Positions 9,209-37,626 of a stretch of DNA of 39,070 bases are shown piece by piece. The stretch's first letter is position 1. Each line of letters opens with the position of its first letter. Location: positions 1 through 39,070 of the forward strand of contig CBDDUX010000067.1 in assembly GCA_965234725.1 (NCBI GenBank), written 5' to 3'. The notes under the pieces were generated by a model. That model was given only the letters and a program-made list of their open reading frames with translations, had not been told where the DNA came from and searched no databases. The position numbers were made by a program, and so were the translations under genes. Source of the DNA: Thermoplasmatota archaeon. Lineage in GTDB: Archaea > Thermoplasmatota > Penumbrarchaeia > Penumbrarchaeales > Penumbrarchaeaceae.

Positions 9209-10437
9209 ATCCGACCCCCCTTCTTCATATGTTCCTCGGTCTCCAATAAAAGGACGGTGATATTGGATCCGGATCCTCCAACGTTATGGGCCAACCCGAC
9301 CTCTGGTTTCCTCCCAAGGCTTCTTTCAATGGGATATGGACTTTTTCCAGAAAGCTGTTGGAAGATCTCCCCTACCTGTCTGACACCTGTTGCTCCAACT
9401 GGATGTCCATCAGCTTTCAGTCCCCCACCCGTGTTGGTTATGAAAGTATGGCCTTTCCTCTCGTATGTGATATGACTCTCCTCCCCATGGGATTCAAAGG
9501 CCCTTTTCACCATCTCGGGTCCTTTTCCCCTTTCAGCCAATCCGAGGTCCTCGTATCCCATTACTTCCTGTATAATGTAGGCATCATGCATTTCAAAAAG
9601 ATCCACATCCTCAAGGGCCAGGGAGGTCCTTTGAAAAGCGATATCCTTTGCTTTCCTTGTCGCCCTGAGATCGGAAAGTGATCGTCTGCTATAGAGGCCA
9701 ATGGAATCTGTGCTCATTCCATAACCTGAAAGAAAGACGAATCTGTCTGTTATCTCTCTTGCTTTCTCTTCGGATGCAATGATCAATGCCGCAGCACCAT
9801 CGCTCACCGGGGAGCAGTCCAGAAGTCTGACAGGATCGGATATCACGGGGGCGTTCAGAACCATCTCCTGTGTTATCTGGTTCCGGAAATGTGCATGAGG
9901 GTTCTCCGAAGCATGCATATGGTTCTTCACAGAAATCAGTGTCATATCCTCATAATTTGCATTCTTGTTCTCATGGAGGTATCTCTGTGTCAGGATGGCG
10001 TTCAACGAGATGAAATCGAATTCATATAGACGTTCCCACTCGCTCGCTGCTGCCATGTAGGCTTTTCTGGCTGATCGGTCTGTTGCTTTTTCAGCTCCAC
10101 CAACAAGAACTAGGTCGCAGTCACCACTCTTGATGGCCCTAACAGCATTATAAACAGCAGCCCCACCGCTTGCACAGGCTGCTTCCACTCTTGTAATGGG
10201 GATGTCAAATCCCATCTCTTCAGCGAGATATGCCGAAAAATTTCCCTGATCGTTCATGATCTCGGGAACGAATGTTCCTATCACCATCTCGTCTATGTCC
10301 TCTCTCGAGATCTTCGCATCTCTTAAAGCGGCAATTCCCGCTTCTGCCACAAGAGAGATGAAGGACCGTTCGAAGAGCTCTCCGAATTTTGTCCTACCAG
10401 ATCCAATTACTACAACTTTTTTGAAATCAGAAGCCAT
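9205..10437 (-). CDS. Archaeal-type acetyl-CoA C-acetyltransferase (thiolase)
   Basis: Motifs EAACASGGAA (nucleophile Cys), CSPVSDGAAA, EMHDAY, GHPVGATG and HNVGGSG. Start placed at MASDFKKVV (10437), after a GGAG SD; the ORF track extends it to 10479. Confidence 0.92.
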   Translation of the reverse strand: MASDFKKVVVIGSGRTKFGELFERSFISLVAEAGIAALRDAKISREDIDEMVIGTFVPEIMNDQGNFSAYLAEEMGFDIPITRVEAACASGGAAVYNAVRAIKSGDCDLVLVGGAEKATDRSARKAYMAAASEWERLYEFDFISLNAILTQRYLHENKNANYEDMTLISVKNHMHASENPHAHFRNQITQEMVLNAPVISDPVRLLDCSPVSDGAAALIIASEEKAREITDRFVFLSGYGMSTDSIGLYSRRSLSDLRATRKAKDIAFQRTSLALEDVDLFEMHDAYIIQEVMGYEDLGLAERGKGPEMVKRAFESHGEESHITYERKGHTFITNTGGGLKADGHPVGATGVRQVGEIFQQLSGKSPYPIERSLGRKPEVGLAHNVGGSGSNITVLLLETEEHMKKGGRI

Positions 10438-10592
10438 TAATAAGTCTCCATATGTCTCTTTTTTTTTAGAATATGTCACATGTCAGTGATATGGGATAGA
10501 TAAAACTTACCATGTAACAAAGATAATAATTATCCCTCAAAAATTCTTTTTTCAGGTGAAATATTTTTTTAGGGGGATAACGATCATCACAT

Positions 10593-11753
10593 ATGGTCTC
10601 GGTAAAGGAAAGGACGGTCAAGGGAAAGAAATACCTCTACATATCCGCCACATCGTCATACAAAGGTCAGAAGAAGAGATTCGAGAAATCCCTGGGTCCT
10701 GTCGATTCCGATCCTAAGGAAATTGAGCATAAGACGGAGTTCTATTCTGACCTACTTGAACTTAAATCGGTTCTCTTCAAGATCTATCTTGAGGCCAAGG
10801 ACAAGGAATTCAAGTATCTCCCTCGTTTCTATTCGATCTACCTTTCAATGATCAGGAACTTCTATTCCCAGTTCCTTTCTGACCTGTATCCTTCTGAGCT
10901 GGAAAAATACAAGGAAGTACAGAATGTAAAGTATGTTCACCATACAACTGCGATGGAAGGAAATACCCTGACTCTGAGAGAAGCCGCCCTCATAATAGAA
11001 GACGGGATTGCACCAAAAGGAAAACAACTTAGGGAGATACACGAGGTTGAGAACTTCAAGAAGGTTCTCAGGTATCTCAGATCTTATAAAGGGGACGTCT
11101 CTCTCCCGTTTATCAAGAAGATCCATTATATGGTCCAGCAAAATATTGATGACGAGCAGGCCGGCAATCTCAGAAGGATAGAGGTGGGGGTCGTTGGTTC
11201 CAATTTCGAACCGCCTCCGGCCATATTCGTCGAGGATGAGATCAAAGAACTGGTAGAATGGTACAAGGATAATTCCGATCATCTGCACCCTTTCGAACTT
11301 GCAGGTATCTTTCATTACAGATTGGTCCAGATCCATCCTTTCGTAGATGGGAACGGGAGAGTGGCCAGAGAGCTTCTGAACTTCATCCTTGAGAGGAACG
11401 GGTATCCCCCTACTATATTGGAGGTGACCGATCGTGAGGATTATCTGAAGAGGCTCCAGAAAGCGGATGACGGTGATCCGGCTCCATTCCTTGAGCTTCT
11501 GGCGATCAAGATGATCACAGATTATGAGGATGTCATCATGTCATTTCAAAAGAGGGCCTTAAAAGATATAGAAACCCTGACAGACGGAGAGATGGCAGAG
11601 ATATTCCAGATGCTTGTATGGTTCATGCATTTGATGAGGGAGTTCGAGGTTGATATCCCTGCAGAAGCTAGGGAGAGGATCTCTTCGATCAAACGCTTCT
11701 TCGAGAGGGGAATGATCCATTCTGATCGAAATCAGATCATTCCAGAAACCTGA
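10593..11753 (+). CDS. Fic-domain protein (AMP transferase family)
   Basis: Canonical HPFVDGNGRVAR motif, upstream inhibitory-type TTAMEGN motif, and a basic N-terminal GKKYLY segment. Confidence 0.93.
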   Translation: MVSVKERTVKGKKYLYISATSSYKGQKKRFEKSLGPVDSDPKEIEHKTEFYSDLLELKSVLFKIYLEAKDKEFKYLPRFYSIYLSMIRNFYSQFLSDLYPSELEKYKEVQNVKYVHHTTAMEGNTLTLREAALIIEDGIAPKGKQLREIHEVENFKKVLRYLRSYKGDVSLPFIKKIHYMVQQNIDDEQAGNLRRIEVGVVGSNFEPPPAIFVEDEIKELVEWYKDNSDHLHPFELAGIFHYRLVQIHPFVDGNGRVARELLNFILERNGYPPTILEVTDREDYLKRLQKADDGDPAPFLELLAIKMITDYEDVIMSFQKRALKDIETLTDGEMAEIFQMLVWFMHLMREFEVDIPAEARERISSIKRFFERGMIHSDRNQIIPET

Positions 11754-15916: not shown

Positions 15917-15955
15917 GTCGGGAGGTTCTTATGAGTCTCCCGGCCACTTTTTTTT
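15917..15955 (+). terminator. Stem-loop plus T8 tract after the 13244-15887 gene pair
   Basis: GTCGGGAGGTTC-TTAT-GAGTCTCCCGGC (12-bp stem including G-U pairs), followed by TTTTTTTT at 15948-15955. Confidence 0.7.
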
Positions 15956-16052
15956 GACATTTCTGGTGCATATTTAGGGCGAAGATGAAAATAAGGAGGC
16001 CAGAGTTAAATAAATCCTTAAACGATATTCATCAGCTATAGGAGTGTAATAG

Positions 16053-24430: not shown

Positions 24431-25951
24431 TCAGAGATCGATATCGTATATGTTGGAGTATTTTTTCTTGAGGTAGTCGATGAAATGGTCCTCGTTGAGA
24501 GGTTCCCCTGTTACCTTCTTAACAAGGTCGTCAGCTGAATAGAGTTTTCCATATTGGTGAATATTCTCCCTCAACCACTTGAGAAGAGGCTGGAGATCTC
24601 CCTTTTCAATATGGGACCCAAGATCCATGATATCTCTTACTGCCGTATCATAGAATTGAGCCGAATAGAGATTTCCAAGTGAATATGTTGGGAAATAACC
24701 CACGACCCCCATGGCCCAGTGAATATCCTGCAGGCACCCCTGAGCATCATTTTCGATCTCCAGACCGAGGTACTTTTCATAGAGTTCGTTCCATGCTTGT
24801 GGGATCTCGGACACCTTCAACTTATCCTCCATCAGGTCCTTTTCGATCTCGAACCGAACCAGGATATGCATTGAATAGGTGACCTCGTCCGCCTCCACTC
24901 TTATTGGTGACAAACTGATATGGTTGATAGCCCTATGGAAATCATCGAGGTTCACATCCCTCATTGATGGAAAAGCAACCTGAAGGTCCGGGAAATAGGC
25001 CTTCCAGAAGTTCTCGGACCTTCCTACAATGTTTTCCCAGAGTCTTGATTGTGATTCATGGATCCCAAGGGAAATCGGTTCAGCTAGTGGTGTAAGGTAA
25101 TTTTCTTTCTTGAAACCCTGTTCATAAAGGGCATGTCCCGCTTCATGTATGGTAGAGAAGAGGCCGGGTCTAAGGTCATTCTCATCATATCTCAAGGTTA
25201 CCCTGACATCATCAAGAGATCCCGCAGTGAAGGGATGAGCCGACGTATCCACTCTGCCCCGTTCAAGATCATACCCCATTTTCTGCATGATGGCCGTGTA
25301 GAATTCTTTCTGTACACCTATGGGATAATTTCTCTTGAGAACATCCTGATCATCATTACTGCAAATGTCTGTGAGTCTGGATACAAGTGGCTTTAATTTT
25401 TCACCGAGATCATGGAATATTCCGGTCAATCTTTGACTTTTCATGTATGGTTCGAACTCATCAATAAGTGCGTCGTAGGGCGAATCCTCGTAACCAACAT
25501 GTTCAGCTACCTGCTTCTTCAGTGAAATTACCCTTTCAAGAACCTCTTTGAAAATTGAGAAATCAGACCTCTTCCTTGCCTTGACCCATACACCGGTTGC
25601 TACCGGTTCCAATCCGGAGAGTTCCCTTATGAGTGAACTTGGTATGGCCGCCGCCCTTGTGTGACTTCTAGTTATCTCTCTGACTATTGCTGCTTTTTCT
25701 CCTGTCAATTCAATCTTGGATAGATCATGAAGTAGTCCCTTCATCTCCTTTGATATGAGCCTTTCGTGTGCGATCCCAGAGATGAGCGATTGCTGTTCAC
25801 CTCTCATGTCAACGGAACCAGGCGGCATATACGTGTTCTGATCCCACATGAGAATGCTTCCTATCTGTCCCAAGCGGACTATATCCGAATACCTGAAGAC
25901 AAGTTCATTATAAGGATCCACATCCATTCCTCGAGGCTGTATAAATTTCAT
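24431..25951 (-). CDS. Carboxypeptidase, peptidase family M32
   Basis: Motifs HPF, DVRVT, HEAGHALYEQG, HESQSRLWEN, IRVEADE, GCLQDIHW and GYFPTY.LG. The true start may be 25927. Confidence 0.95.
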   Translation of the reverse strand: MKFIQPRGMDVDPYNELVFRYSDIVRLGQIGSILMWDQNTYMPPGSVDMRGEQQSLISGIAHERLISKEMKGLLHDLSKIELTGEKAAIVREITRSHTRAAAIPSSLIRELSGLEPVATGVWVKARKRSDFSIFKEVLERVISLKKQVAEHVGYEDSPYDALIDEFEPYMKSQRLTGIFHDLGEKLKPLVSRLTDICSNDDQDVLKRNYPIGVQKEFYTAIMQKMGYDLERGRVDTSAHPFTAGSLDDVRVTLRYDENDLRPGLFSTIHEAGHALYEQGFKKENYLTPLAEPISLGIHESQSRLWENIVGRSENFWKAYFPDLQVAFPSMRDVNLDDFHRAINHISLSPIRVEADEVTYSMHILVRFEIEKDLMEDKLKVSEIPQAWNELYEKYLGLEIENDAQGCLQDIHWAMGVVGYFPTYSLGNLYSAQFYDTAVRDIMDLGSHIEKGDLQPLLKWLRENIHQYGKLYSADDLVKKVTGEPLNEDHFIDYLKKKYSNIYDIDL

Positions 25952-27004: not shown

Positions 27005-30000
27005 TCAACCTATTTTTTCTGAGTGATCATCTTCTTGTGTCCCTTGAAGGGGACCTTTATTTTCTTTCCGATTTTTTAAGACCATCAAACCAAAGAATAC
27101 CAAGCAGATAATCAAGAAGAGACTTAAGATAGTCAACATTAAACCTACAGGACGTTGGTCCTCTCTTTCACTTCCTTCTCCATCCAGAGGTATATCAGTA
27201 GATGATTTCACTGTAATATTGAATGTTATCGATGTAATATCTTTTCCATCTGTTACACTTATTTCAATCGTATTATTTCCGATATCTTCAGGTCCAGGTT
27301 CCCAGGTCATAATCGATGTTGAACTGGAAAGGTCCACTCCATCTGGACTTTGGACTAATTCCAATACAAGAGCAGATTGATCAATCAAATCAGGGTCCAT
27401 TGTGCTCAATTCAATGGTCAATTTCTTTCCAACATCTATCTCCCAGTCACCTGGATCAGTGAGTGTGGGGGGCGTGTTCACATGGAAACTGTGGACTCCA
27501 TCTTGGCAGTAACCGGATGACCTTTGATCCTTTGGAACCACTGTCCAGAAGTACTCTTCTCCTTTGAGCAATATTTCAGGTTTATATTCTGTAATCACCG
27601 TTGACTCCAGGATCAAATGCTCTTCCTTCAATTCTTCTACTTCTACCCAGTTTGTTCCGATATATAGATCGAAGAGGACCTCCTCTCCTTCCGGATCGGC
27701 CCCCTCCCATTTCAATACGATATCAGATGATTTGTATGACTTTCCATGTTCCGGTGATAGTAGTCTTGCAGTAGGAGCCGGATCGGGAACAATGAACAGG
27801 TCGAAATCATGACGGATCAATACATTTCCATCCGAGGCCTGGACTGTAATTGTCGTGAAAAATGTATTGTTCTGGAGCATTGTCAAACCCTTTGTATCTG
27901 CTTCCCAGGAGATCTCTCCGGAGAATGGATCGATGAAGATCGAAGAATATGGGAAGGAACTGATCGAATATTCCAACACATCCATAGAGTCTTGATCGAA
28001 TGCTTCCATCTGGAAACTGAATTCCTCTCCTTCTCTGAGAGTAGTTCCGTTGAAAACTTTTTTCCATACTGGCTTGTCATTTGTATTTAATACAGTCAGT
28101 GTGAAATTGTGGAAATCGGTTCCCTCCTTTCCGTCCGAGATCGAAATATTCACAAAGTATGAACCTACATCCTCATTTCTTGGTATTCCAGAAAGCCTGC
28201 GGGTATCCTTATTGAACTCCAACCAATTGGCATTTGTCTTCATAGTCCAGTTCAAGCTATCTCCATCAGGATCATAAGCAGAATAACTAATGAGATAATA
28301 ATCATCTTCAATGGCCTCAATATCATCCAATGTGGAGATTGAGGGATCTCTATTGGTTTGATATATATTTAGGACAAATCTTGACCAATCCCAACCACCA
28401 TTTCCATCATTGACAGATACATTGATATGATATTCTCCAGTATGTTCGCTAGTTGGTGTTCCACTTAATATCCCAGTATGAGGGCCCATTTCAAGGAATG
28501 GGACTTTCGGCGAATAGGACCATGAAATTACACCCAGCCCATCCTGGTCTGAGTTATAATCCGAATAGTAGAATTCTCCCGTACTTATCTCCTCGATATC
28601 ATCGGTCAAAATCACTGGTGGTATATTGATTACAGTAAGAATGAATTCATGTCTATCAAAATGTCCCAGATCATCTGATATGTTGATCATTATTTGATAT
28701 TCACCAACGTGGGAATTTGTTGGAGTTCCCGAAAGGATTTTCTTATTGCTATTCCAGGTTAACCAGGAAGAAGCCGATCCAAGATCGATATCCCATTGTT
28801 GAGGCTCAATAATCCCTCTATAACTGTATTTTACTTCATAGAACTGGTTTTCTGTGGCCTCTTGATCATCTTCCTGGGGAAATAATGTAATATGATCTTG
28901 CACCAGGAGTTTAGAAAAGATGTTAGGACTCTTCCTTGAATAAACAGTAATATTCTTCCACGGTATCGAATCACATGTCGGATGCAGTGTATCTATACAA
29001 GATCCAAGTGTGAAATTCCCCCGATAATGGCCAGTATTCTTTCCAGTCTCTTTTAACATCAGAGGTAATTGAGACTCCGTCCCTTCTGTTTCGATGATAG
29101 CAAATGCCTGATCAATATGCGATGTATTCCCATCTATACCAATCAATTCAACGAATATCCTACCTCCTTTCAATGCCTTTGTGATCGGAGTGTCGAATGA
29201 ATTGTTAGGATAAAGCCTGATAGATGTAGTAGTTAGCTGTTCAGAAGCTTTATTAGTTGAAATGATAAACACTTTTCCTCGATTGTATCTACTTAATGTG
29301 TTGTCAAATTGTGGCATTCCGACCTTGATCTCTGGATAACCATCACCATTGATATCTCCAGCCATGGATAGTTCATTGAACCCAGCAGGAATATCATTCG
29401 TATCAGTCCCAAAGAATATGAAATCCGAGTCTGTTAAACTCATGTTCCCTTTCCAGTTTGTCGAGTTACCATTTATTACATATACATTCCCATCTTGGAT
29501 ATTATTGTAACTATGATAAGGTGCTCCTATCGCGATGTCATCATACCCATCGAGGTTCAGATCACCGACTATGGTCACAGATGTTCCTGCATTTTCAGTA
29601 TCAGATCCCAAATATATCCTATCAGCTGTATCTACATTGGTATTCTCATCAAATTCCGTTTTCTTTCCAAGGAAAAGATATACCTTTCCATTAAAATCAT
29701 CAGAGCGATTTGCTCCGATTAGAATATCATTGAATCCATCACCATTGATGTCTCCTCTCCCTCCAACCATGCTGCCTTGATCCTCTATTTTAGTGCATAG
29801 AAAGGATCCATTGCAATATGTTTCGATATTCCCCCCCTTTTCCCAACCTTTACTTCTCCCCAATAACAGGTAATTTTCCACTTTGGAAGAAATTTTTGAA
29901 TAATTGGATAAATAACGACTTCCAATAATCATATCATCGAATCCATCACCATTGATGTCACCAAGTCCGGTCCCAGTACCCGGCCAACCCAGCATCTCCA

Positions 30001-30772
30001 TCTGTTGTGAACCCTCATATGAGTAATGCTGTGAGCTCAAGACCTCATTATTGACCCATCCAATACTCCTTCCAAAAACGATGTAGACGATACCTGCATC
30101 AATCTTTCCCTCTGCATCATGGCCGTAGGCACCGATGATGAAATCATCATATGAATCATTATTTAGATCACCCACGCCAGTGGTTAACCATCCAGCTCCA
30201 TCACCCTGGTTTTCACCGATGAAAGAAGCATCAGCATTTGAGGTATTGATCTCCTTCTGCCAACCATCATCTTTTCCAAAGAAAAGGTACACCTTTCCTC
30301 TATCAATCTTTCCACCTGAGTTGAAATTTCCATCACACATCAATATATCATCAAATCCATCACCATTGATATCTCCTGCAATTGAACCAAAACCAAGTTT
30401 TGCCCCCCCTGGGGTTTCCATCACGAATTTCACATCTGCATTTGATACAGAATCATCCCTTTTCAATCCCACACCCCTCCCAAAGGTCAGAAAAACCAAA
30501 GAAGGATTTATTCCAGGTCCCATTGCATCAGCTATCACGTCATCAAAACCATCCCCATTGACATCTCCAGATCCAAGACTGAACCTTCCATAGGTCATAC
30601 TTCCGATATCACCTTCAATACTGCACCAGGCGTTTGACATTGGATTGATCTGTGTTGTGAATATTTTTTCGAATATATCATGAACCTCTTCCATATTTGT
30701 CTCATTAAGAGCAATAGAAATTGAGGATATTACTGATAGAGTTGCCACTATTAATCCTATATTCAATCTCAT
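27005..30772 (-). CDS. Surface protein with 7 FG-GAP (integrin-alpha-like) repeats, cadherin/Ig-like stalk and C-terminal TM helix
   Basis: Seven GD(V/I/L)NxDG(F/Y)xD-type repeats with G.VY.F.G strands, LSGTP...VG.Y.I.I.VSD Ig repeats, signal peptide and C-terminal TM helix. Confidence 0.93.
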   Translation of the reverse strand: MRLNIGLIVATLSVISSISIALNETNMEEVHDIFEKIFTTQINPMSNAWCSIEGDIGSMTYGRFSLGSGDVNGDGFDDVIADAMGPGINPSLVFLTFGRGVGLKRDDSVSNADVKFVMETPGGAKLGFGSIAGDINGDGFDDILMCDGNFNSGGKIDRGKVYLFFGKDDGWQKEINTSNADASFIGENQGDGAGWLTTGVGDLNNDSYDDFIIGAYGHDAEGKIDAGIVYIVFGRSIGWVNNEVLSSQHYSYEGSQQMEMLGWPGTGTGLGDINGDGFDDMIIGSRYLSNYSKISSKVENYLLLGRSKGWEKGGNIETYCNGSFLCTKIEDQGSMVGGRGDINGDGFNDILIGANRSDDFNGKVYLFLGKKTEFDENTNVDTADRIYLGSDTENAGTSVTIVGDLNLDGYDDIAIGAPYHSYNNIQDGNVYVINGNSTNWKGNMSLTDSDFIFFGTDTNDIPAGFNELSMAGDINGDGYPEIKVGMPQFDNTLSRYNRGKVFIISTNKASEQLTTTSIRLYPNNSFDTPITKALKGGRIFVELIGIDGNTSHIDQAFAIIETEGTESQLPLMLKETGKNTGHYRGNFTLGSCIDTLHPTCDSIPWKNITVYSRKSPNIFSKLLVQDHITLFPQEDDQEATENQFYEVKYSYRGIIEPQQWDIDLGSASSWLTWNSNKKILSGTPTNSHVGEYQIMINISDDLGHFDRHEFILTVINIPPVILTDDIEEISTGEFYYSDYNSDQDGLGVISWSYSPKVPFLEMGPHTGILSGTPTSEHTGEYHINVSVNDGNGGWDWSRFVLNIYQTNRDPSISTLDDIEAIEDDYYLISYSAYDPDGDSLNWTMKTNANWLEFNKDTRRLSGIPRNEDVGSYFVNISISDGKEGTDFHNFTLTVLNTNDKPVWKKVFNGTTLREGEEFSFQMEAFDQDSMDVLEYSISSFPYSSIFIDPFSGEISWEADTKGLTMLQNNTFFTTITVQASDGNVLIRHDFDLFIVPDPAPTARLLSPEHGKSYKSSDIVLKWEGADPEGEEVLFDLYIGTNWVEVEELKEEHLILESTVITEYKPEILLKGEEYFWTVVPKDQRSSGYCQDGVHSFHVNTPPTLTDPGDWEIDVGKKLTIELSTMDPDLIDQSALVLELVQSPDGVDLSSSTSIMTWEPGPEDIGNNTIEISVTDGKDITSITFNITVKSSTDIPLDGEGSEREDQRPVGLMLTILSLFLIICLVFFGLMVLKNRKENKGPLQGTQEDDHSEKIG

Positions 30773-30805: not shown

Positions 30806-31723
30806 TTATCCTGTCCATATGACTTTGAACATATTGCCCTCCAGTTGGATCAGACTGATCGTGTATTCTCCTCTCACCTTTGCCCGGGAATGCTTTGCAA
30901 ATTCAATTGCATCCTTGGTGAATCCTTTTGAGGATAATATTCCGATCTCGAGTGGATATTTTGACCAGTTCAAGACTTCTTCACAATCGGCTTTGAACTC
31001 ACCAATATCTTTGACCGTGACCTCTTTCTTATAATATTTCATAAGAATTACTTCGGTCCTGAAGAAGAACCTCAAGATCATCAGAACGAATATGGTAAGT
31101 ACAATGAACTCAAGGACTCCTAGTAGAATGAAATTGATGATCGAGTCAAATTGAGAATATATTATTGCTTCAACAAAGATGGTAGCGAGCAAGAACAGGA
31201 TCAATGCTATGGTGACAATGTAAATTAGCGAATTCTGATTGTTCTTGTAATAGATATCAAACGTATGTGATTTCCCATTTCTTTTTACAGTTTTCTTGAG
31301 GAATCCTTTGAAATCATTGATCCCAAGATAGAAAACATCGTCAAGCCTGTTGATCAGGTCCTCCAATATCTTATCCTTGTTAACAGGGAACATCTCCATC
31401 TTGACCTTGAACCTGATGGGTTTGATCTTGTCAGTGATCTTCATGAACGGTTTGAAGAACTTCAGGACTGATGTTAAAAGGATCAGACCAAAGAAGAATA
31501 CTGAAAAAGCACCGAAGATGCACAATTCATCCAGGATCCAGGTATCAGGATCGATCGCCCACAGAATAAATACCGCTGTGAAAAAAACAACCGATAGTCC
31601 CTCCATAAGTATGGAGAAAAGGAAAAATGGTATCTTGCTCGATATCTTAAAAAGGTCGTCTCCTAGCGTAGTTACCTTTGTGGTATCAAATGCTTGAAAG
31701 GAGTTGTCCTTCTTATCTGACAC
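30806..31723 (-). CDS. 4-TM membrane protein with an Mrr-like (PD-(D/E)XK) domain interrupted by a TM hairpin
   Basis: GKSHTFDIY, then two TM helices, then VILMKYYKKEVTVKDI...GILSSKGFTKDAIEFAK (Mrr-type S.xGFT..A motif). GTG start with TATA-like TTATAAT about 25-30 nt upstream. Confidence 0.78.
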   Translation of the reverse strand: MSDKKDNSFQAFDTTKVTTLGDDLFKISSKIPFFLFSILMEGLSVVFFTAVFILWAIDPDTWILDELCIFGAFSVFFFGLILLTSVLKFFKPFMKITDKIKPIRFKVKMEMFPVNKDKILEDLINRLDDVFYLGINDFKGFLKKTVKRNGKSHTFDIYYKNNQNSLIYIVTIALILFLLATIFVEAIIYSQFDSIINFILLGVLEFIVLTIFVLMILRFFFRTEVILMKYYKKEVTVKDIGEFKADCEEVLNWSKYPLEIGILSSKGFTKDAIEFAKHSRAKVRGEYTISLIQLEGNMFKVIWTG

Positions 31724-31750: not shown

Positions 31751-31785
31751 TAAGGGGGTGTGGAATTCAATTCCACACCTCTTTA
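31751..31785. promoter_or_regulatory. Palindromic candidate operator between divergent promoters
   Basis: Perfect 11-1-11 inverted repeat GGTGTGGAATT-C-AATTCCACACC at 31757-31779, extending imperfectly to 31751-31785. Confidence 0.65.
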
Positions 31786-31866
31786 ATTGTGATACAATGG
31801 TGTTCACTATCATTCATTCCGGGTATATATCCCGATTAGGACAATATCCTTCTCGAGGTGTATCAA

Positions 31867-31956
31867 ATGAGCAACATCGGAATGAAAACAAACGGAAATG
31901 ACGCATGTGTATGGCTGAGAAATGTGAACAAATGCTTCCCTGTCTATAGCAGGTGA
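31867..31956 (+). CDS. Array peptide 1: MSNIGMKTNGNDACVWLRNVNKCFPVYSR (29 aa)
   Basis: GAGGTG SD at 31855-31860, TATA-like TATATAT at 31824-31830, and the shared C-terminal motif. Confidence 0.85.
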   Translation: MSNIGMKTNGNDACVWLRNVNKCFPVYSR

Positions 31957-31992
31957 ATGAACGGGAGATCATCGTTATAGGAGGGATGCAAA

Positions 31993-32067
31993 ATGAATGG
32001 AAAAGAAAATGTAAATGATGTCTGGCTGAGAAATGTGAACAAATCCTTCCCTGTTTATTACAGGTGA
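31993..32067 (+). CDS. Array peptide 2: MNGKENVNDVWLRNVNKSFPVYYR (24 aa)
   Basis: GGAGG SD about 8 nt upstream and the shared C-terminal motif. Confidence 0.85.
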   Translation: MNGKENVNDVWLRNVNKSFPVYYR

Positions 32068-32097
32068 AAGAAACCGAGGTAGTAAGGAGGGAAGAAA

Positions 32098-32187
32098 ATG
32101 AGCAATATGGGAATGAGATCATGTGGAAACGGCGCGGAACCCTGGATCAGGAACGTCAACAAGAGCTATCCGATCTACTTCAGGTGA
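32098..32187 (+). CDS. Array peptide 3: MSNMGMRSCGNGAEPWIRNVNKSYPIYFR (29 aa)
   Basis: AGGAGG SD. The motif is kept through synonymous codon changes, and the MSNxGM...GN N-terminus is shared with peptide 1. Confidence 0.85.
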   Translation: MSNMGMRSCGNGAEPWIRNVNKSYPIYFR

Positions 32188-32211
32188 TCGGAAAAGAAGG
32201 TGGTGAAAAAG

Positions 32212-32280
32212 ATGGAAATCTCGGGTTCGGAAAAATGGTTGAGGAACGTGAACAGATATTACCCTCTCTTCATGAGGTAG
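32212..32280 (+). CDS. Array peptide 4: MEISGSEKWLRNVNRYYPLFMR (22 aa)
   Basis: GGTGGTGA SD, shared C-terminal motif, TAG stop. Confidence 0.83.
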   Translation: MEISGSEKWLRNVNRYYPLFMR

Positions 32281-32307
32281 TATCGGTAACCAGCAGGAGG
32301 GAAGTAA

Positions 32308-32376
32308 ATGGAAGAAAACGTGTCAACGGTCTGCATGAGAAATCTCAGAAAAAATTATCCAGTATTTCCAAGGTAA
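32308..32376 (+). CDS. Array peptide 5 (divergent): MEENVSTVCMRNLRKNYPVFPR (22 aa)
   Basis: AGGAGG SD. RN....YPVF.R-stop falls in the same register as peptides 1-4. TAA stop. Confidence 0.75.
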   Translation: MEENVSTVCMRNLRKNYPVFPR

Positions 32377-32428
32377 TCAGGTTAAATATTCACTATCCAA
32401 TGTTATTCGAGGATGGATCCCAAAAAAG

Positions 32429-32497
32429 TGATCTCGATCGATCCTTCATGGAAGGGATGGAGGATCGATCGGATCATACAACTTATGATCATTTTTT
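32429..32497 (+). terminator. Double hairpin plus T-tract closing the peptide array
   Basis: CGATCGATCCTTCAT (32435-32449) pairs with ATGGAGGATCGATCG (32457-32471). It is followed by GATCATA-CAACT-TATGATC (32472-32490) and TTTTTT (32492-32497). Confidence 0.6.
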
Positions 32498-32535
32498 CGT
32501 TGATAATAATAAAACTTTTTTAAGGGGGTTGAAGA

Positions 32536-35500
32536 ATGAATAAGATCTTGTATTTAATTGCGGCCATTTCAATGATAACATTACCCTTTGGGGTATTGGA
32601 TCAGAATGCAGATAGCAGTAATGTTTTACAAACCGAACCCTGTCGAGGACTAAACGAATGGGATTCAAGTCATTCTATCTCCGAGGCTGTGACCGCTTCT
32701 TTCTTGGGCCAGAATAATGAGACAAAATCAGGATACTCAACATCAATCGTCGGTGATCTGGACGGTGATGGATATGACGATATTGCCATATCTGCAATCG
32801 AAAGCAATATCAGTTCAGGACACTCAGGTCAGGTGTATATATATTTTGGAAGAAAAACGGGATGGCAGTATAATATGTCCCTTCTTGATGCGGATGCGTC
32901 ATTTCACGGTGAACGAACTGGTGACAGGATCGGTACATCTGTATCCGGAGCGGGTGATGTAAACAGGGATGGATTCGAGGACTTACTCATTGGGACCCAT
33001 GCTTATCCCGGTGGGAATAATAAAGGAAAAACTTACCTATTTTTCGGAAAGCCAAAGGACCAGTGGAATATGGGTGTGAACATAAGCAGTTCCGATGCAT
33101 CATTTATTGGACAATCCCAGGGGGACATGGCGGGTGAGGTTTCTGGTGTGGGTGATGTCAACGATGATGGTTTCTCTGATTTCATGATAGGCGCATCGAG
33201 GCATGGATCCGGGAAAGGAATAAGTTATCTATTTTTTGGAAAAGATTCTGGATGGTCCAATGAGATGGGTGTCACAACAGCAAACGCATCTTACGTAGGG
33301 GAATCAGAGGGAGACATGTCAGGTTACAGGATTTGCGGTGTGGGGAATGTCAACCGGGATGATTACGATGATATTTTGATCAGCGCCCCTGGTAGAAATG
33401 AAAACCAGGGAAAGACCTATCTGGTCCTTGGAATGGAAACCGGTTGGTCAAAAAACAATCCCTTATCTGTAGCTAATGCTTCATTTATTGGTGAAGTTAA
33501 AGGGGATCGATCCGGGATGGCAATTTCCGGATGGGGTGATGCGAATGGTGATGGTATAGATGATATCCTCATTGGGGCGGGTTATAATGATGAGGGTGGT
33601 AAGGATTCGGGTCAATCATACCTGATCTTCGGAAGGCTCTATGGATGGAAGAAGGATATGTTACTTTCAGATTCTGATGCATCCTTCATAGGATCTCCAG
33701 GAAGTCTTTCAGGATGGGCATTATCAATATCAGGAGATATCAACAGTGATACATTGGATGACCTTGTCATTAGCGGTCCTGATTACATTATCGGGACGGA
33801 AAAGATTGGAATTGTCTATATGGTCTATGGCAGGGAATCCAATTGGAGCATGGACATGGACCTCGTAAATTCTAATGCAGTCTTTATCGGTGAGAATGTT
33901 TCAGATTCCTTCGGATATTCTCTATCAACAAGCGGAGATGTAAATGGTGATGGTAATGAAGATATCCTTATCGGAGCACCTTTAAATGATAAGGGTGGAC
34001 TGGATTCGGGTCAAACATATTTGGTCCTGGGAAAAGGTTTCTCCTGGAGGATGAATACACCTCTCTCTCTCGCTGATTCCTCTTTCGTAGGAGAAAATCC
34101 AAGAGATTTCTTTGGATATGAATGTGCTGTAGTTGGGGATGTAAATGGTGACGGATTCAATGATTGGGTAGTATGTGCATACCTTAATGACGAATCATAT
34201 GAGGATGCGGGCCAGGTATACCTATTTCTAGGGAGAGAAAATAATTGGGGACATGATTTTAACATATCCAATGCAGATGCTTCTTTCCTGGGAGAGAATC
34301 ATGGAGATAATATCGGTCCAATGTGTGGTTCTGGAGATGTTAATAATGACGGATTCGATGATTTCTTGATAAGTTCACCATGGAATGATCAAAGTGGGAC
34401 AAATGCAGGGAAAGTATACCTTATATTAGGTAAGAAGAACGGTTGGGAAATGGACACGCCTCTTTCAGAAGCTGATGCTTCCTTTTTAGGAGAGAACGCT
34501 GAAGATGAGGCAGGAATAGGGACCAGTATTCAAGGAGATGTAAACGGAGACGGATTCGATGATATTCTCATAGGTGCTCCATATAATGACGAAAGTATCA
34601 ACGATGCAGGAAAAACATATCTATTATTCGGAAAGGATGGAGGATGGGTTAACAATATTAGCCTTTCCCAGGCTGATGCATCTTATCTTGGAGTTAATTC
34701 GGGAGCATCATCAGGGATGACTCCATGCATTCAAGGAGATATAAATGGAGATGGATTTGATGACATCCTCATACCAAATCGTCCTGGTCTTGATTCACGG
34801 ATTGGTGAAGTATATTTGATTTTTGGAAAGAGTTTCGGATTTATGAAAAACAAGTCATTGTTATTGTCGGATGCTTCATTTATTGAAGAATTTCAGGCAG
34901 ATCGCTTTGGTGGAATGGAAGGTCCAGCTGGAGATATAAATGGTGATGGACTTGATGATATTTTAATAACTGCTGGGACAGCCACTAGTAATGGAAAAGC
35001 GACGGGAAAAGCTTATCTCTATTTTGGAAGGAGCTCCGGCTGGAAAATGAAGATCAATGTTTCTGAAGCAGATGTCACATTTATTGGGGAGAACGATGGT
35101 GATTATATCGTTGTAGCAACAGGAGATGGAGATCTTAATGATGACGGATATGACGATATTATCATTGGAGCTCCCTACAATAGTAATGCTGGGTATCTGT
35201 ATGGCAACACTTATGTTATCTTCGGACAACCTAGTGGTTATCCAAGGAATTATTCACTGAGCGAGGCGGATGCTTCTTTTGTGGGCTTGAGATATTATAA
35301 TTTGGCCGGAATGTCTTGTTATATTTTGGGAGATGTGAATAATGATGGATTCGATGACTTCTTTACAACTTCAATATTCAATAATAATGGAGGTTTATAT
35401 GAAGGGAAGGGATATCTTATATACGGTCGAAAATTTCTTGGAGCAAGACCACAGATCACTCTCAACAAGACCTACATTTCAAGTCAACTTGACGGCAATA

Positions 35501-37626
35501 GATCCATAAAGGGAGAGCTCGAGATCAAATGGGAGGCCTGGGATGAGGAGAGTGCGGATGATCTATCCATCTCAATTTTCTATAGACGCGGAGAAACTGG
35601 TTGGAAATTGATCGCAAACAATCTGGAAAACACTGGGTCCTATATCTGGAATACAAATAAACCTAGAGTGAAAGATGGATCCAAATATTATATCATGGTC
35701 AAGGCTGAAGATGAAAATGAACAGATCAGTTCTTCGGAATTGGATTTCAGTTTCAGGATCGATAATCCGGATCCTCCATCGATAAGGATATTATCTCCAG
35801 GTCTTGGAGAGATCATCACTGGCCAGTCAACGGTTGAATGGAGGGCGGAGGATGATGAGGACCAGGGAATAGACCTGAAAGTTGACCTTTTCTTCTCAGA
35901 AGATAGCGGTGAGAATTATACTCTCCTTGCTTCGGACCTTAAATATTCGGATTCTTTCACATATGATACATCCGATTATCCGGATGGCTATTATTATCGG
36001 TTCAAATTGACGGTCAGGGATACTTCCGGTCTTGAAACCAGTATCGAGACGATGAACATCCAGTTCCTCAATGATCCCAAGATAGAGATCCTTCTACCAA
36101 TGGAAGGCGATGTTATTTCAGAAATCTACAAGATCAGATGGATCGCCTCGGATCCAGGGGATTTCGATCCGGATCTTCTCGTATCTATATGGTTATCATG
36201 GGATATGGGTCAGAGTTATGATCTGGTAATGAAGGACCGTCTAAATACTGGTGAATACGAGATAGATACAACTGAATATCCAGATAGCAAGGAATGTATG
36301 CTGAAAATGGAGGTCAGTGATCCATCTGGGAAGAACCATACAGCAGTGTCAGATGTATTCACCATTCTGAATACAGATCCTCCGAAAGTAGTTTTCACAG
36401 GACCTCCAACAGGTGAGGTTTATTCCAAGACTATCAAATTAACCTGGAATGCTACAGATGATGAGGATGGTCCGGGAGCTCTTCTCTATTCATTGTATTA
36501 TCAATTCCATGGAGATGAGATGTGGTACCAACTTGAACACTTACAGCCAAATAACGGATTTCTCGATCTGGACACATTAAGCCTTGTAACAGGTGATGGG
36601 AAATATACCCTTATGATAAGGGTGCAGGATACCTATCTTGAGGTATCAGAACCCTCATATCTGGAGATAGAGGTCTATAATCCCGATTACCCCGAGATAA
36701 AATATCCGTTTGGTCCTTACTTCCCCATAAGAGATGGGATTGCCGATTTTGAATGGTATGCAACTGATCCTGATCCCGGAGAGGAAGATCAGCTTCTGGT
36801 TTGGTACTATGTATCCATCGATGGTGAAGAATGGACAACCATGGTGGATGGCATATTGAATGAAAACCAGCTATCCATGGATGTTTCCGGTCTTCAGGAT
36901 GATGAATATTTTGTCAAGATGAAGGTATCCGACGATCAGCCCGGTGAAAATGAGAGGTCTGTAGAGGTTGTCCTTGATCAGAAAATGGTTCTAAATAACC
37001 AAAATGATCCGCCGGAGGTGGAAGTTATTGAAGGTCCCAGCTCAGATGTGGAATATTCGAATGATATTACCTTCACATGGACTGGATCGGATCCTGATGG
37101 GGACGACATATCATATACACTATTTTATAGGCTAAAGGACAGCTCGAATTGGATACCAATACCAGGAGCTCAGGACATAAAAGAAACAACCTATACTTGG
37201 AACGTTTCCAAGTTAGATGAAGGATTTTATCAGGTGAAGATCGTTGGGAAGGAGGATTATATTGAGGAGCTTGAGAGTGAATGGATCTCCGAGGAGTTCT
37301 ATGTGAAACCAGTGAAACTTGATATTGGGAACGAGGATCGGGAGGTCACCGTGAATTACGGACTTCTCATAGGTATCGCAGCTGGATTCACAGTACTTGT
37401 AATGGTGATCGTATGGATACTTTTCCTTAATGCAAGGAAAAGGGAAACCAGTGAGATAGTGCATCCGGACGATCTTGATCCAAGTAATCAGGAAGGATCT
37501 AAGGAAGCAGTCCCAGATGAAATCAATGAAGGGGATCTGGATGAGGTTTTCACTCCACCTCCTGATCCATTAACCACTTTGGAGGGAACTCCACAGGATT
37601 CTGAGGGAGGTAACTTGGAGGAATGA
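32536..37626 (+). CDS. Surface protein with 14 FG-GAP repeats (probably two 7-bladed propellers), Ig-like stalk and C-terminal TM helix
   Basis: Fourteen G(D/N)xNxDGxxD-type repeats with ADASF.GE and G.TYL.FG, repeated N.DPP...I.W.A.D Ig-like units, signal peptide, TM helix and acidic tail. Confidence 0.93.
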   Translation: MNKILYLIAAISMITLPFGVLDQNADSSNVLQTEPCRGLNEWDSSHSISEAVTASFLGQNNETKSGYSTSIVGDLDGDGYDDIAISAIESNISSGHSGQVYIYFGRKTGWQYNMSLLDADASFHGERTGDRIGTSVSGAGDVNRDGFEDLLIGTHAYPGGNNKGKTYLFFGKPKDQWNMGVNISSSDASFIGQSQGDMAGEVSGVGDVNDDGFSDFMIGASRHGSGKGISYLFFGKDSGWSNEMGVTTANASYVGESEGDMSGYRICGVGNVNRDDYDDILISAPGRNENQGKTYLVLGMETGWSKNNPLSVANASFIGEVKGDRSGMAISGWGDANGDGIDDILIGAGYNDEGGKDSGQSYLIFGRLYGWKKDMLLSDSDASFIGSPGSLSGWALSISGDINSDTLDDLVISGPDYIIGTEKIGIVYMVYGRESNWSMDMDLVNSNAVFIGENVSDSFGYSLSTSGDVNGDGNEDILIGAPLNDKGGLDSGQTYLVLGKGFSWRMNTPLSLADSSFVGENPRDFFGYECAVVGDVNGDGFNDWVVCAYLNDESYEDAGQVYLFLGRENNWGHDFNISNADASFLGENHGDNIGPMCGSGDVNNDGFDDFLISSPWNDQSGTNAGKVYLILGKKNGWEMDTPLSEADASFLGENAEDEAGIGTSIQGDVNGDGFDDILIGAPYNDESINDAGKTYLLFGKDGGWVNNISLSQADASYLGVNSGASSGMTPCIQGDINGDGFDDILIPNRPGLDSRIGEVYLIFGKSFGFMKNKSLLLSDASFIEEFQADRFGGMEGPAGDINGDGLDDILITAGTATSNGKATGKAYLYFGRSSGWKMKINVSEADVTFIGENDGDYIVVATGDGDLNDDGYDDIIIGAPYNSNAGYLYGNTYVIFGQPSGYPRNYSLSEADASFVGLRYYNLAGMSCYILGDVNNDGFDDFFTTSIFNNNGGLYEGKGYLIYGRKFLGARPQITLNKTYISSQLDGNRSIKGELEIKWEAWDEESADDLSISIFYRRGETGWKLIANNLENTGSYIWNTNKPRVKDGSKYYIMVKAEDENEQISSSELDFSFRIDNPDPPSIRILSPGLGEIITGQSTVEWRAEDDEDQGIDLKVDLFFSEDSGENYTLLASDLKYSDSFTYDTSDYPDGYYYRFKLTVRDTSGLETSIETMNIQFLNDPKIEILLPMEGDVISEIYKIRWIASDPGDFDPDLLVSIWLSWDMGQSYDLVMKDRLNTGEYEIDTTEYPDSKECMLKMEVSDPSGKNHTAVSDVFTILNTDPPKVVFTGPPTGEVYSKTIKLTWNATDDEDGPGALLYSLYYQFHGDEMWYQLEHLQPNNGFLDLDTLSLVTGDGKYTLMIRVQDTYLEVSEPSYLEIEVYNPDYPEIKYPFGPYFPIRDGIADFEWYATDPDPGEEDQLLVWYYVSIDGEEWTTMVDGILNENQLSMDVSGLQDDEYFVKMKVSDDQPGENERSVEVVLDQKMVLNNQNDPPEVEVIEGPSSDVEYSNDITFTWTGSDPDGDDISYTLFYRLKDSSNWIPIPGAQDIKETTYTWNVSKLDEGFYQVKIVGKEDYIEELESEWISEEFYVKPVKLDIGNEDREVTVNYGLLIGIAAGFTVLVMVIVWILFLNARKRETSEIVHPDDLDPSNQEGSKEAVPDEINEGDLDEVFTPPPDPLTTLEGTPQDSEGGNLEE

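Follow-up and report, generated by a model that had tools for sequence, protein, structure and literature searches.

An unannotated array of five micro-ORFs with a conserved C-terminal motif in a Thermoplasmatota archaeon

The stretch of DNA considered here comprises 39,070 nucleotides of contig CBDDUX010000067.1 from a Thermoplasmatota archaeon and is referred to as the window. At positions 31867–32376 of its forward strand, the listing of open reading frames (ORFs) shows five ATG-started ORFs of 29, 24, 29, 22 and 22 amino acids (aa), placed back to back and ending in a common motif. This array of micro-ORFs is the subject of the present analysis. Genes for proteins of less than 30 aa are systematically missed by annotation, and very few archaeal micro-proteins have an assigned role. 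A preliminary description of the window had reported five consecutive ORFs of 22–29 aa, each with its own Shine–Dalgarno (SD) site, and this was confirmed by the ORF listing together with a check of the SD sites. Beyond that description, a conserved 305-aa partner, a shared palindrome and hairpins that sequester SD sites were found.

The micro-ORFs and their relatives

Micro-ORF 1 (31867–31956, +) encodes a 29-aa peptide of the long class (see below) with the N-terminal sequence MSNIGMK..., the core WLRNVNKCFPVYSR and the stop TGA. Its length is counted from the SD-supported ATG, and an alternative GTG start at 31858 would give 32 aa. Its orthologue in a related locus, L001 (10229–10318, −), keeps the frame, the SD and the stop position. 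Micro-ORF 2 (31993–32067, +) encodes 24 aa with the core WLRNVNKSFPVYYR and the stop TGA, and the L001 orthologue stops at the unchanged position with TAA. Micro-ORF 3 (32098–32187, +), again of the long class with 29 aa, carries the core WIRNVNKSYPIYFR and ends in TGA, the stop of its L001 orthologue being TAG. Both micro-ORF 4 (32212–32280, +) and micro-ORF 5 (32308–32376, +) encode 22 aa. The former has the core WLRNVNRYYPLFMR, the stop TAG and an alternative GTG start at 32200 that would extend it to 26 aa; the latter has the core CMRNLRKNYPVFPR and the stop TAA and is the most divergent copy. The SD-like sites GAGGTG, AGGAGG, AGGAGG, AGGTG and AGGAGG precede the ATGs of ORFs 1–5 by 6–9 nt. 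Over the three loci that carry the array (the window, L001 and a further locus, L003), 13 of 15 starts are preceded at a spacing of 5–9 nt by an SD-like site that is 5 nt or longer; of all 1866 ATG triplets in the window, 179 satisfy a looser SD criterion (3–12 nt). The spacing from stop to stop is 111, 120, 93 and 96, which places all five ORFs in one frame, in the window as well as in L001 (9803–10318, −); the ORFs of the L003 array are not all in one frame. One read-through protein made from the five ORFs was considered and rejected, as two in-frame stops lie between ORF 1 and ORF 2, and the use of all three stop codons also disfavours it.

The C-terminal consensus of the five window peptides is W[LI]RNVN[KR]x[FY]P[VIL][YF]xR-stop, and the last 14 residues align without gaps exactly as first stated. 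In the family as a whole, the register of this 14-residue tail is fixed to the stop, with an aromatic residue or Cys at −14, R at −12, N at −11, a basic residue at −8, F or Y at −6, P at −5, Y or F at −3 and R at −1. The N-terminal parts (8–17 aa) are variable in length and sequence. Two classes of peptides can be distinguished, a long one of 29–31 aa and a short one of 22–26 aa, and the long-class copies show a second conserved motif, N-terminal M-x-x-hydrophobic-G followed by a G/N/D-rich stretch, which is kept across lineages. All 16 peptides examined are hydrophilic and cationic, with a grand average of hydropathy (GRAVY) of −0.21 to −1.27 and a net charge of +2 to +4. No signal sequence, as had been noted before, and no hydrophobic segment was found in the peptides. 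AlphaFold2 (AF2), run on the alignment of the peptide family, gave a predicted local distance difference test (pLDDT) of 57 without secondary structure. As the peptides are hydrophilic, lack a signal or hydrophobic segment and have no predicted structure, the conserved tail is best regarded as a C-terminally anchored linear motif.

The degenerate DNA pattern of the core has four matches in the window against 0.00 expected from 100 shuffles. The fifth copy (CMRNLRKNYPVFPR) is more divergent and was recovered by a regular expression at the peptide level, which found no further core copy in the 39 kb; its sole extra match, at 15941–15964 (−), lies outside an ORF context. The core DNA pattern was also used to scan, once, one genome for each of 185,579 species, and three loci were returned. 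L001 belongs to a Thermoplasmatales metagenome-assembled genome (MAG) and contains the orthologous five-ORF array. L003, from a Thermoplasmatota MAG, contains four canonical copies and a divergent ORF of 43 aa. The match in Paenibacillus (L002, 10001–10036, −; WMRNVNRRFPLF-stop) was dismissed as a chance match, its frame being full of stops and its end lacking x-R; by our own arithmetic, about 0.5 chance matches to this 41-bit pattern are expected in the collection. The scan has thus provided two related Thermoplasmatota arrays, with frame, SD and stop position kept in L001. As the DNA pattern is strict, the counts of copies and loci are lower bounds. The 43-aa ORF of L003 (7563–7694, +) has a long N-terminal extension and the same SD context as the fourth copy, and it ends in ...LRLLNMNGPRWAR-stop. 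It retains L-13, R-12, N-9, P-5, W-3 and R-1 and is a divergent member of the family.

A profile of 14 peptides was searched against 1.84 billion representative proteins and gave two matches (P0011 and P0012) at E ≤0.001, both of them long-class peptides of 30–31 aa that end in the motif; no longer protein carrying the motif as a tail was found in this search. Gene callers seldom report ORFs below 30 aa, so that counts from protein sets are lower bounds as well. None of the five peptides matched a Pfam family at E ≤10 or an NCBIfam family, precursor models included, at E ≤1. PADLOC returned no family for the two peptides searched, and a tblastn search of phages with the 32-aa form gave no match. 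In an Atlas search with a 31-aa peptide, only unnamed clusters of short proteins were obtained, with about 100 of 256 features in common. No description of the family was found in the literature searches, and the string LRNVNK is absent from the full texts searched. The statement that no known family is recognised therefore holds; the peptide family and the family of its partner (see below) are both undescribed. The array family is rare, and it is known from three genomes in addition to two peptide clusters and ten partner clusters in metagenome-scale protein sets.

The evidence for coding comes from the pattern of substitutions. Among the five window cores, 5, 6 and 13 of 14 columns are variable at codon positions 1, 2 and 3, respectively. 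In nine of the ten pairs of window cores, the proportion of synonymous differences (pS) is at least 0.65 and hence saturated, whereas that of non-synonymous differences (pN) is 0.19–0.33, which is the outcome of the dN/dS-type comparison suggested earlier. The remaining pair, 1–2, is a recent duplicate (pS 0.12, pN 0.09) and uninformative on selection. Peptides 2 and 3 had been described as differing mostly synonymously; this is roughly right, since their cores differ by 8.5 synonymous and 6.5 non-synonymous changes, pS being saturated and pN 0.19. In the 14 canonical copies of the three genomes, R-12 is encoded by AGA in seven and by AGG in seven, N-11 by AAT in nine and AAC in five, and P-5 by four different codons. 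The stops of these copies are TAA (7), TGA (4) and TAG (3) at constant position, in line with the variable identity (TGA, TGA, TGA, TAG and TAA in the window) and fixed position reported at the outset. When the window is compared with L001, codon positions 1, 2 and 3 of the ORFs show 20, 22 and 38 differences, each out of 126 sites, and the inter-ORF spacers show 55 differences in 132 sites. The codon-position pattern, the synonymous turnover at invariant residues and the differences between the window and L001 bear out the original proposal of selection on the peptide rather than on a DNA repeat. We are highly confident that the five ORFs are real translated genes, and the comparison indicates one family of paralogues whose peptides are under purifying selection. 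Comparative sequence alone makes a strong case for five unannotated genes of 22–29 aa.

Could the array be explained without peptide genes, as a repeat of DNA or RNA or as a section of a longer ORF that overlaps it? Two longer ORFs, one of 159 aa (32064–32543, +) and an antisense one of 102 aa (31814–32122, −), are indeed open in the window and have counterparts of 152 and 112 aa in L001. They were rejected because no ORF of at least 80 aa exists over the L003 array and because, read in the 159-aa frame, the variable sites occupy codon position 1: the differences between the window and L001, 24, 26 and 37 of 93 when sorted by position in the peptide frame, become 37, 24 and 26 in the 159-aa frame. 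In the antisense frame, by our own arithmetic, the variable sites land on position 2. The purine-rich character of the region would suit a non-coding repeat. Nevertheless, such a repeat would not predict synonymous turnover at invariant residues, retained SDs and a retained stop position. No Rfam family was found at or near its gathering score, and the two matches obtained (E 0.29 and 0.55) are eukaryotic and lie outside the ORFs.

The last sense codon is AGG in all 15 micro-ORFs of the window, L001 and L003, and 46% of the Arg codons that occur in 14 long window genes are AGG. Since AGG is used in 15 of 15 cases while the Arg at −12 alternates between AGA and AGG, part of the constraint on R-stop goes beyond the residue, and the invariance may lie partly at the level of RNA, codon, tRNA, stop context or termination. 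The proposal that the free C-terminal Arg matters must therefore be read with this reservation.

Some features of the stop context may be recorded here. AGG followed by TRA resembles an SD core; even the final ORF of each array, which has nothing after it, retains AGG-stop. The window stops are located at 31954–31956, 32065–32067, 32185–32187, 32278–32280 and 32374–32376, and TC often follows the stop, giving AGGTRATC, in the L001 and L003 arrays included. We take this string to resemble the complement of the 16S 3′ end.

The control region and the divergent 305-aa gene

The array is separated from a divergent gene by an intergenic region of 143 bp, which contains a TATA-like box for each direction, a palindrome and a conserved block. 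The TATA-like box of the array (GGGTATATAT, 31821–31830, +) lies about 37 nt ahead of the first ATG and is a candidate archaeal promoter. It is identical in L001 and reads GGGTTTATAA in L003. The palindrome GGTGTGGAATT-C-AATTCCACACC (duplex GGTGTGGAATTCAATTCCACACC) occupies 31757–31779, on neither strand in particular. Its 17-nt arms are 88% complementary, and it lies between the two divergent promoters as a candidate operator. The block AAGGGGTGTGGAATTnAAnTCyACAC, with the palindrome GGTGT...ACACC, is kept in all three loci. Downstream of the array, a hairpin at about 32428–32478 (z −2.9) is followed by T6 at 32492–32497, and this element (32428–32497, +) is a candidate transcript end. The T6 is kept in L001; in L003, T5 stands right after the last ORF and a further hairpin with a T-run is present. 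A scan for terminators and promoters of the bacterial type gave no sites, as expected for an archaeon. With the TATA-like box kept across loci and the hairpin and T6 downstream, the array looks like a separate transcription unit, in agreement with the preliminary description.

Two RNA hairpins were observed within the array. In the first (31933–31990, +; −23.6 kcal/mol, z −4.5), the F-P-V-Y codons of ORF 1 pair with the SD of ORF 2, and in the second (32046–32094, +; −23.3 kcal/mol, z −5.1), the F-P-V-Y-Y codons of ORF 2 pair with the SD of ORF 3. Both are present in L001 as well (z −3.6 and −3.8, respectively) and absent in L003, where the junctions give z −0.9 to +0.9 for an SD-sequestering hairpin. 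By hiding the SDs, these hairpins would couple the translation of ORFs 1, 2 and 3 in the lineage of the window.

The product of the divergent gene (30806–31723, −) is a protein of 305 aa for which four membrane helices are predicted; its soluble domain gives a weak signal that resembles a restriction endonuclease (Mrr). Tabulation of the neighbours, also among the checks proposed earlier, showed that this gene adjoins the array in divergent orientation in three of three loci and is the sole neighbour common to all, the remaining ones being different. Its homologue in L003 (6108–7025, −) is 59% identical, and the partial one in L001 shows 80% identity over 133 aa. No match to the protein was obtained in Pfam (E ≤0.001), NCBIfam or PADLOC, or by tblastn in plasmids, and the best result of a sequence search of the PDB was ribosomal protein L3 at only E 0.51. 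The family comprises 10 clusters among 5.8 billion proteins, and every named one is hypothetical. Whether the single sequence or a profile of the alignment served as the query, the 10 proteins retrieved were identical, so that no remote relatives were reached.

The AF2 model of the 305-aa protein (pLDDT 66; predicted template modelling score 0.52) places helices at residues 21–57, 62–90, 166–189 and 195–220, and the order of elements in the soluble part is alpha-beta-beta, a helix pair or hairpin, and beta-alpha-beta-alpha-beta-beta. In the case of Foldseek, the best matches in the PDB are proteins of the restriction-endonuclease fold, namely MspJI, EndoMS, the N-domain of Rpb5 and AF1548, the best at E 0.03 and none at E ≤0.001. 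In the Atlas, Mrr_cat clusters were found at 0.80–0.89, under the lead threshold of 0.9, with Mrr_cat on 15–100% of the cluster members. The assignment of a restriction-endonuclease fold is thus a lead from predicted structure. The Mrr-type domain (PF04471) has the catalytic signature D...(E/Q)xK. In our reading of the 305-aa alignment, D156 hardly varies, but the (E/Q)xK part is absent: in the strand that follows the inserted pair of helices, the sequence is hydrophobic-x-K/R (e.g., L-M-K and I-I-K), and neither E nor Q stands two positions ahead of K/R. To judge from the alignment, nuclease activity of the soluble domain is improbable. Conservation in the protein is highest in PIRFKVKxExFPV (residues 96–114, 12 invariant), a segment predicted to be disordered (pLDDT <50). 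Mimicry of this linker by the peptides, whose FPV[YF] recalls its FPV, was considered and dropped with a profile–profile probability of 0.2%. A co-fold of the L003 305-aa protein with the peptide family gave a score of 0.00, the mark being 0.32, and counts neither for nor against binding.

The other neighbours vary. In the window and L001, giant FG-GAP proteins are encoded on both sides of the module; in L003, there are respiratory-complex subunits, a PAS histidine kinase and a convergent membrane-anchored protein. The downstream FG-GAP orthologues of the window and L001 share 53% protein identity, and the DNA of the aligned region has a mean column identity of 84%. Because of this difference, the array and the 305-aa gene appear, by sequence identity, as a two-part module conserved well above its changing surroundings. 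The FG-GAP surface proteins that flank the module (27005–30772, −, and 32536–37626, +) have C-terminal membrane anchors and acidic cytoplasmic tails, and, in our reading, the L003 gene convergent on the array (~7860–8040, −) also ends in a membrane anchor and an acidic tail.

A few other genes of the window deserve mention. An M32 (Taq-type) carboxypeptidase is encoded at 24431–25951 (−), about 6 kb from the array; no such enzyme was seen in the examined sections of L001 and L003. The gene at 3173–7759 (+) encodes a protein of 1528 aa with right-handed beta-helix/NosD, fn3 and Ig-like parts and a C-terminal DnaJ (J) domain at residues 1451–1518; the joining of surface-type repeats with a chaperone-recruiting J domain is unusual. 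The Fic/DOC protein encoded at 10593–11753 (+) matches PDC-S04 (E 1.8e-29) and SoFic (E 1.7e-26) in PADLOC and is a candidate AMPylase of the defence or toxin type. An archaeal mevalonate-pathway pair is found at 7760–10479 (−), in which the gene of hydroxymethylglutaryl-CoA (HMG-CoA) synthase (482 aa) overlaps that of a thiolase; the model match of the synthase begins at about residue 142, which leaves an N-terminal extension of about 140 aa.

Possible modes of action

The explanation that we tentatively prefer is that the finished peptides act in trans via their C-terminal 14-mer, probably together with the co-inherited membrane protein. The peptides would stay in the cytoplasm as short linear-motif ligands, and the 14-mer would dock on a protein partner, for which the co-inherited 305-aa protein would be the prime candidate. 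Their role could be that of a modulator, of an antidote-like inhibitor or of a signal for a membrane-tethered regulator that might itself recognise the palindrome. The five diverged copies would then supply dosage as well as graded affinities. Several observations weigh against this explanation. The fold signal of the partner is weak (Foldseek best at 0.03, Atlas below 0.9, no Pfam family, and (E/Q)xK replaced by hydrophobic-x-K/R). The association is drawn from three loci, two of which, the window and L001, are close relatives, and adjacency by itself is weak evidence of interaction. Moreover, AGG in 15 of 15 copies and the rigid distance between motif and stop are equally predicted by cis-acting termination or arrest.

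The last point leads to the alternative that survives best, although it is still unlikely, namely action in cis. Here the nascent 14-mer would slow or block termination from within the exit tunnel, possibly in response to a small molecule, and the held ribosome would free the next SD. A ribosome at the stop would cover the 5′ arm of the next hairpin and so set how far translation proceeds. The conservation is confined to exactly the last 14 residues in stop register, with a varying N-terminus, as would be expected for a tunnel-acting peptide, and the fixed AGG, set against the seven AGA and seven AGG codons at −12, points to a constraint at the codon or tRNA level. Also in its favour are the hairpins at junctions 1→2 and 2→3 of the window and L001 (z −3.6 to −5.1), in which the F-P-V-Y codons are paired with the SD of the following ORF. 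The ribosome exit tunnel accommodates peptides of 22–31 aa, the total length found here. Short bacterial peptides that block termination at a stop codon are documented (PMC11890864). Nevertheless, no regulated gene stands regularly 3′ of the array. A hairpin and T6 lie between the array and the FG-GAP gene in the window and L001, and the end of the L003 array is T-rich and faces a convergent gene. The SD-sequestering hairpins are missing in L003, and the last ORF of each array has its AGG-stop although nothing remains to be coupled downstream. The conserved N-terminal M-x-x-hydrophobic-G of the long class, kept across lineages, suggests selection on the finished product. Finally, arrest peptides are not known to occur in five tandem copies.

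It is rather unlikely that the micro-ORFs are precursors of a ribosomally synthesized and post-translationally modified peptide (RiPP) or of a peptide cofactor, in which the 14-mer would be the core, its aromatics would be cross-linked and the genes of the modifying enzymes would lie in another part of the genome. Several RiPP and cofactor systems, such as those of the PqqA type and those with cores cross-linked by radical S-adenosylmethionine (SAM) enzymes, typically have tandem multi-copy precursors of 20–30 aa whose conserved core is aromatic. The tandem genes of this size are reminiscent of such systems, and so are the core, with its many W, F and Y residues and its invariant P, N and R, and the peptides without a signal sequence or a fold of their own. 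Nevertheless, no radical-SAM protein, YcaO, lanthipeptide synthetase, ATP-grasp, cytochrome P450 or protein of the RiPP recognition element (RRE) type was found among 22 ORFs of the window (of 44 listed with at least 90 aa, overlapping alternatives being omitted) and 13 ORFs of L001 and L003. This agrees with the earlier remark that the window contains no modifying enzyme. The absence of any NCBIfam precursor match, mentioned above, also argues against this proposal. The sole co-conserved neighbour, the 305-aa membrane protein, is unlike any known maturase, and the N-terminal parts are short and variable for a leader. Of the possible functions listed earlier (ligands, inhibitors, antidotes or RiPP-like precursors), that of RiPP-like precursors is weakened by the lack of a RiPP enzyme in three loci.

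Quite unlikely, too, is leaderless export of the peptides as an antimicrobial or a cell–cell signal, with the membrane protein as exporter, immunity protein or receptor. In that case, the array would be the archaeal equivalent of the multi-peptide leaderless bacteriocins or of the phenol-soluble modulins (PSMs). The tandem ORFs of about 20–30 aa with their own SDs, leaderless and cationic, lying beside a membrane-protein gene and missed by annotation, would agree with this proposal. According to the review PMC6131525, aureocin A70 consists of four peptides of 30–31 aa with a charge of +4 to +5 and has an integral membrane immunity protein, AurI; further members of the leaderless bacteriocins emerged from unannotated genes. 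However, all 16 peptides of the present family are hydrophilic, with the GRAVY values given above, whereas the multi-peptide leaderless bacteriocins in the table excerpt of that review range from +0.40 to +0.71. Moreover, no helix was predicted by AF2, no ATP-binding cassette (ABC) transporter was found in the module among the ORFs scanned in the window, L001 and L003, and the conservation lies in a C-terminal linear motif and not along an amphipathic face. The remaining alternative, a non-coding repeat or another reading frame, is very improbable and, from the evidence of the preceding section, close to refuted.

Beyond the explanation in trans as such, a more specific possibility, which we consider rather improbable, may be put forward. 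The locus could represent an archaeal peptide circuit, in which diverged cytoplasmic micro-proteins, through their C-terminal 14-mer, tune a membrane-tethered, catalytically dead restriction-endonuclease-fold protein that recognises the GGTGT...ACACC palindrome, or, equally new, a set of tandem archaeal termination-stalling peptides. If true, the circuit would be a self-contained switch made of peptides and a membrane-anchored DNA-binding protein, without bacterial or eukaryotic counterpart. Peptide control of a membrane-anchored nuclease-fold protein would be a first in archaea, as would stalling at the stop codon, which would provide the first archaeal arrest peptides. As the analysis defines the epitope residue by residue and names a candidate partner as well as a candidate operator, the system is directly testable.

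Comparison with known systems

TnaC and SpeFL are, besides PepNL, termination-arrest peptides. In PepNL of E. coli (PMC11890864), the conserved residues lie within about 14 of the C-terminus and the stop register is fixed, as in the present array. The fixed last codon and the hairpins that a stop-bound ribosome would open are further points of resemblance to arrest peptides. The differences are that five tandem paralogues are found here instead of one leader, that a conserved downstream gene and sequence similarity are lacking, and that the case for stalling here is only circumstantial. RiPP and cofactor arrays likewise consist of multi-copy genes of 20–30 aa with an aromatic core; here, in contrast, none of the three loci encodes a maturase, an RRE or a transporter.

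In the case of the leaderless bacteriocins aureocin A70, garvicin KS and cereucins, 3–5 tandem genes of about 20–34 aa are separately translated into leaderless, cationic peptides beside a membrane protein, and annotation often overlooks them (PMC6131525). The present array shares the tandem arrangement and the separate start signals, and a four-helix membrane protein is adjacent; it differs in hydrophobic and helical character and has no ABC transporter. The staphylococcal PSM-alpha operon has a similar multi-peptide organisation. Sequence similarity to the bacteriocins is absent, the host is an archaeon, and the four-helix partner carries a weak Mrr-like signal.

Peptide–receptor pairs with divergent genes and a palindromic operator are known from Rgg/SHP and other RNPP-type systems of Firmicutes. 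The peptide genes of the array are similarly divergent from the presumed partner, with a palindrome between them, and the functional part is C-terminal. Unlike in those systems, the partner is not a helix-turn-helix/tetratricopeptide-repeat protein (no Pfam family), the peptides are hydrophilic, and there is no exporter or importer nearby.

C-terminal docking motifs offer another comparison, since both HbYX and the C-terminal peptide of FtsZ are short tails in which an aromatic residue and the free carboxylate form a binding epitope. In the HbYX motif of proteasome activators, the last three residues are hydrophobic-Tyr-any, with Tyr penultimate (PMC12352868 and others). Mimicry of HbYX was rejected for the present peptides: only 2 of 14 copies have Tyr at position −2, the aromatic residue that is conserved stands at −3, and every copy ends in Arg. 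That removal of the terminal Arg would leave hydrophobic-Tyr/Phe-x, HbYX-like ends is pure speculation. In addition, LRNVNK resembles the basic N-R-N-K run in the tail of B. subtilis FtsZ (variable region NRNKRG; PMC4835091). This likeness covers about six residues of a bacterial protein.

Taken together, the locus could be assigned to none of the classes compared: it differs from HbYX because Tyr is penultimate in so few copies, from the bacteriocins because of its hydropathy, and from RiPP systems because local enzymes are lacking. Micro-protein genes that stand in tandem next to a membrane-protein gene and are translated independently nevertheless represent an arrangement of a known kind. 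The organisation of the array is closest to that of multi-peptide leaderless operons, and the logic of its conservation is closest to that of termination-arrest peptides or C-terminal docking motifs.

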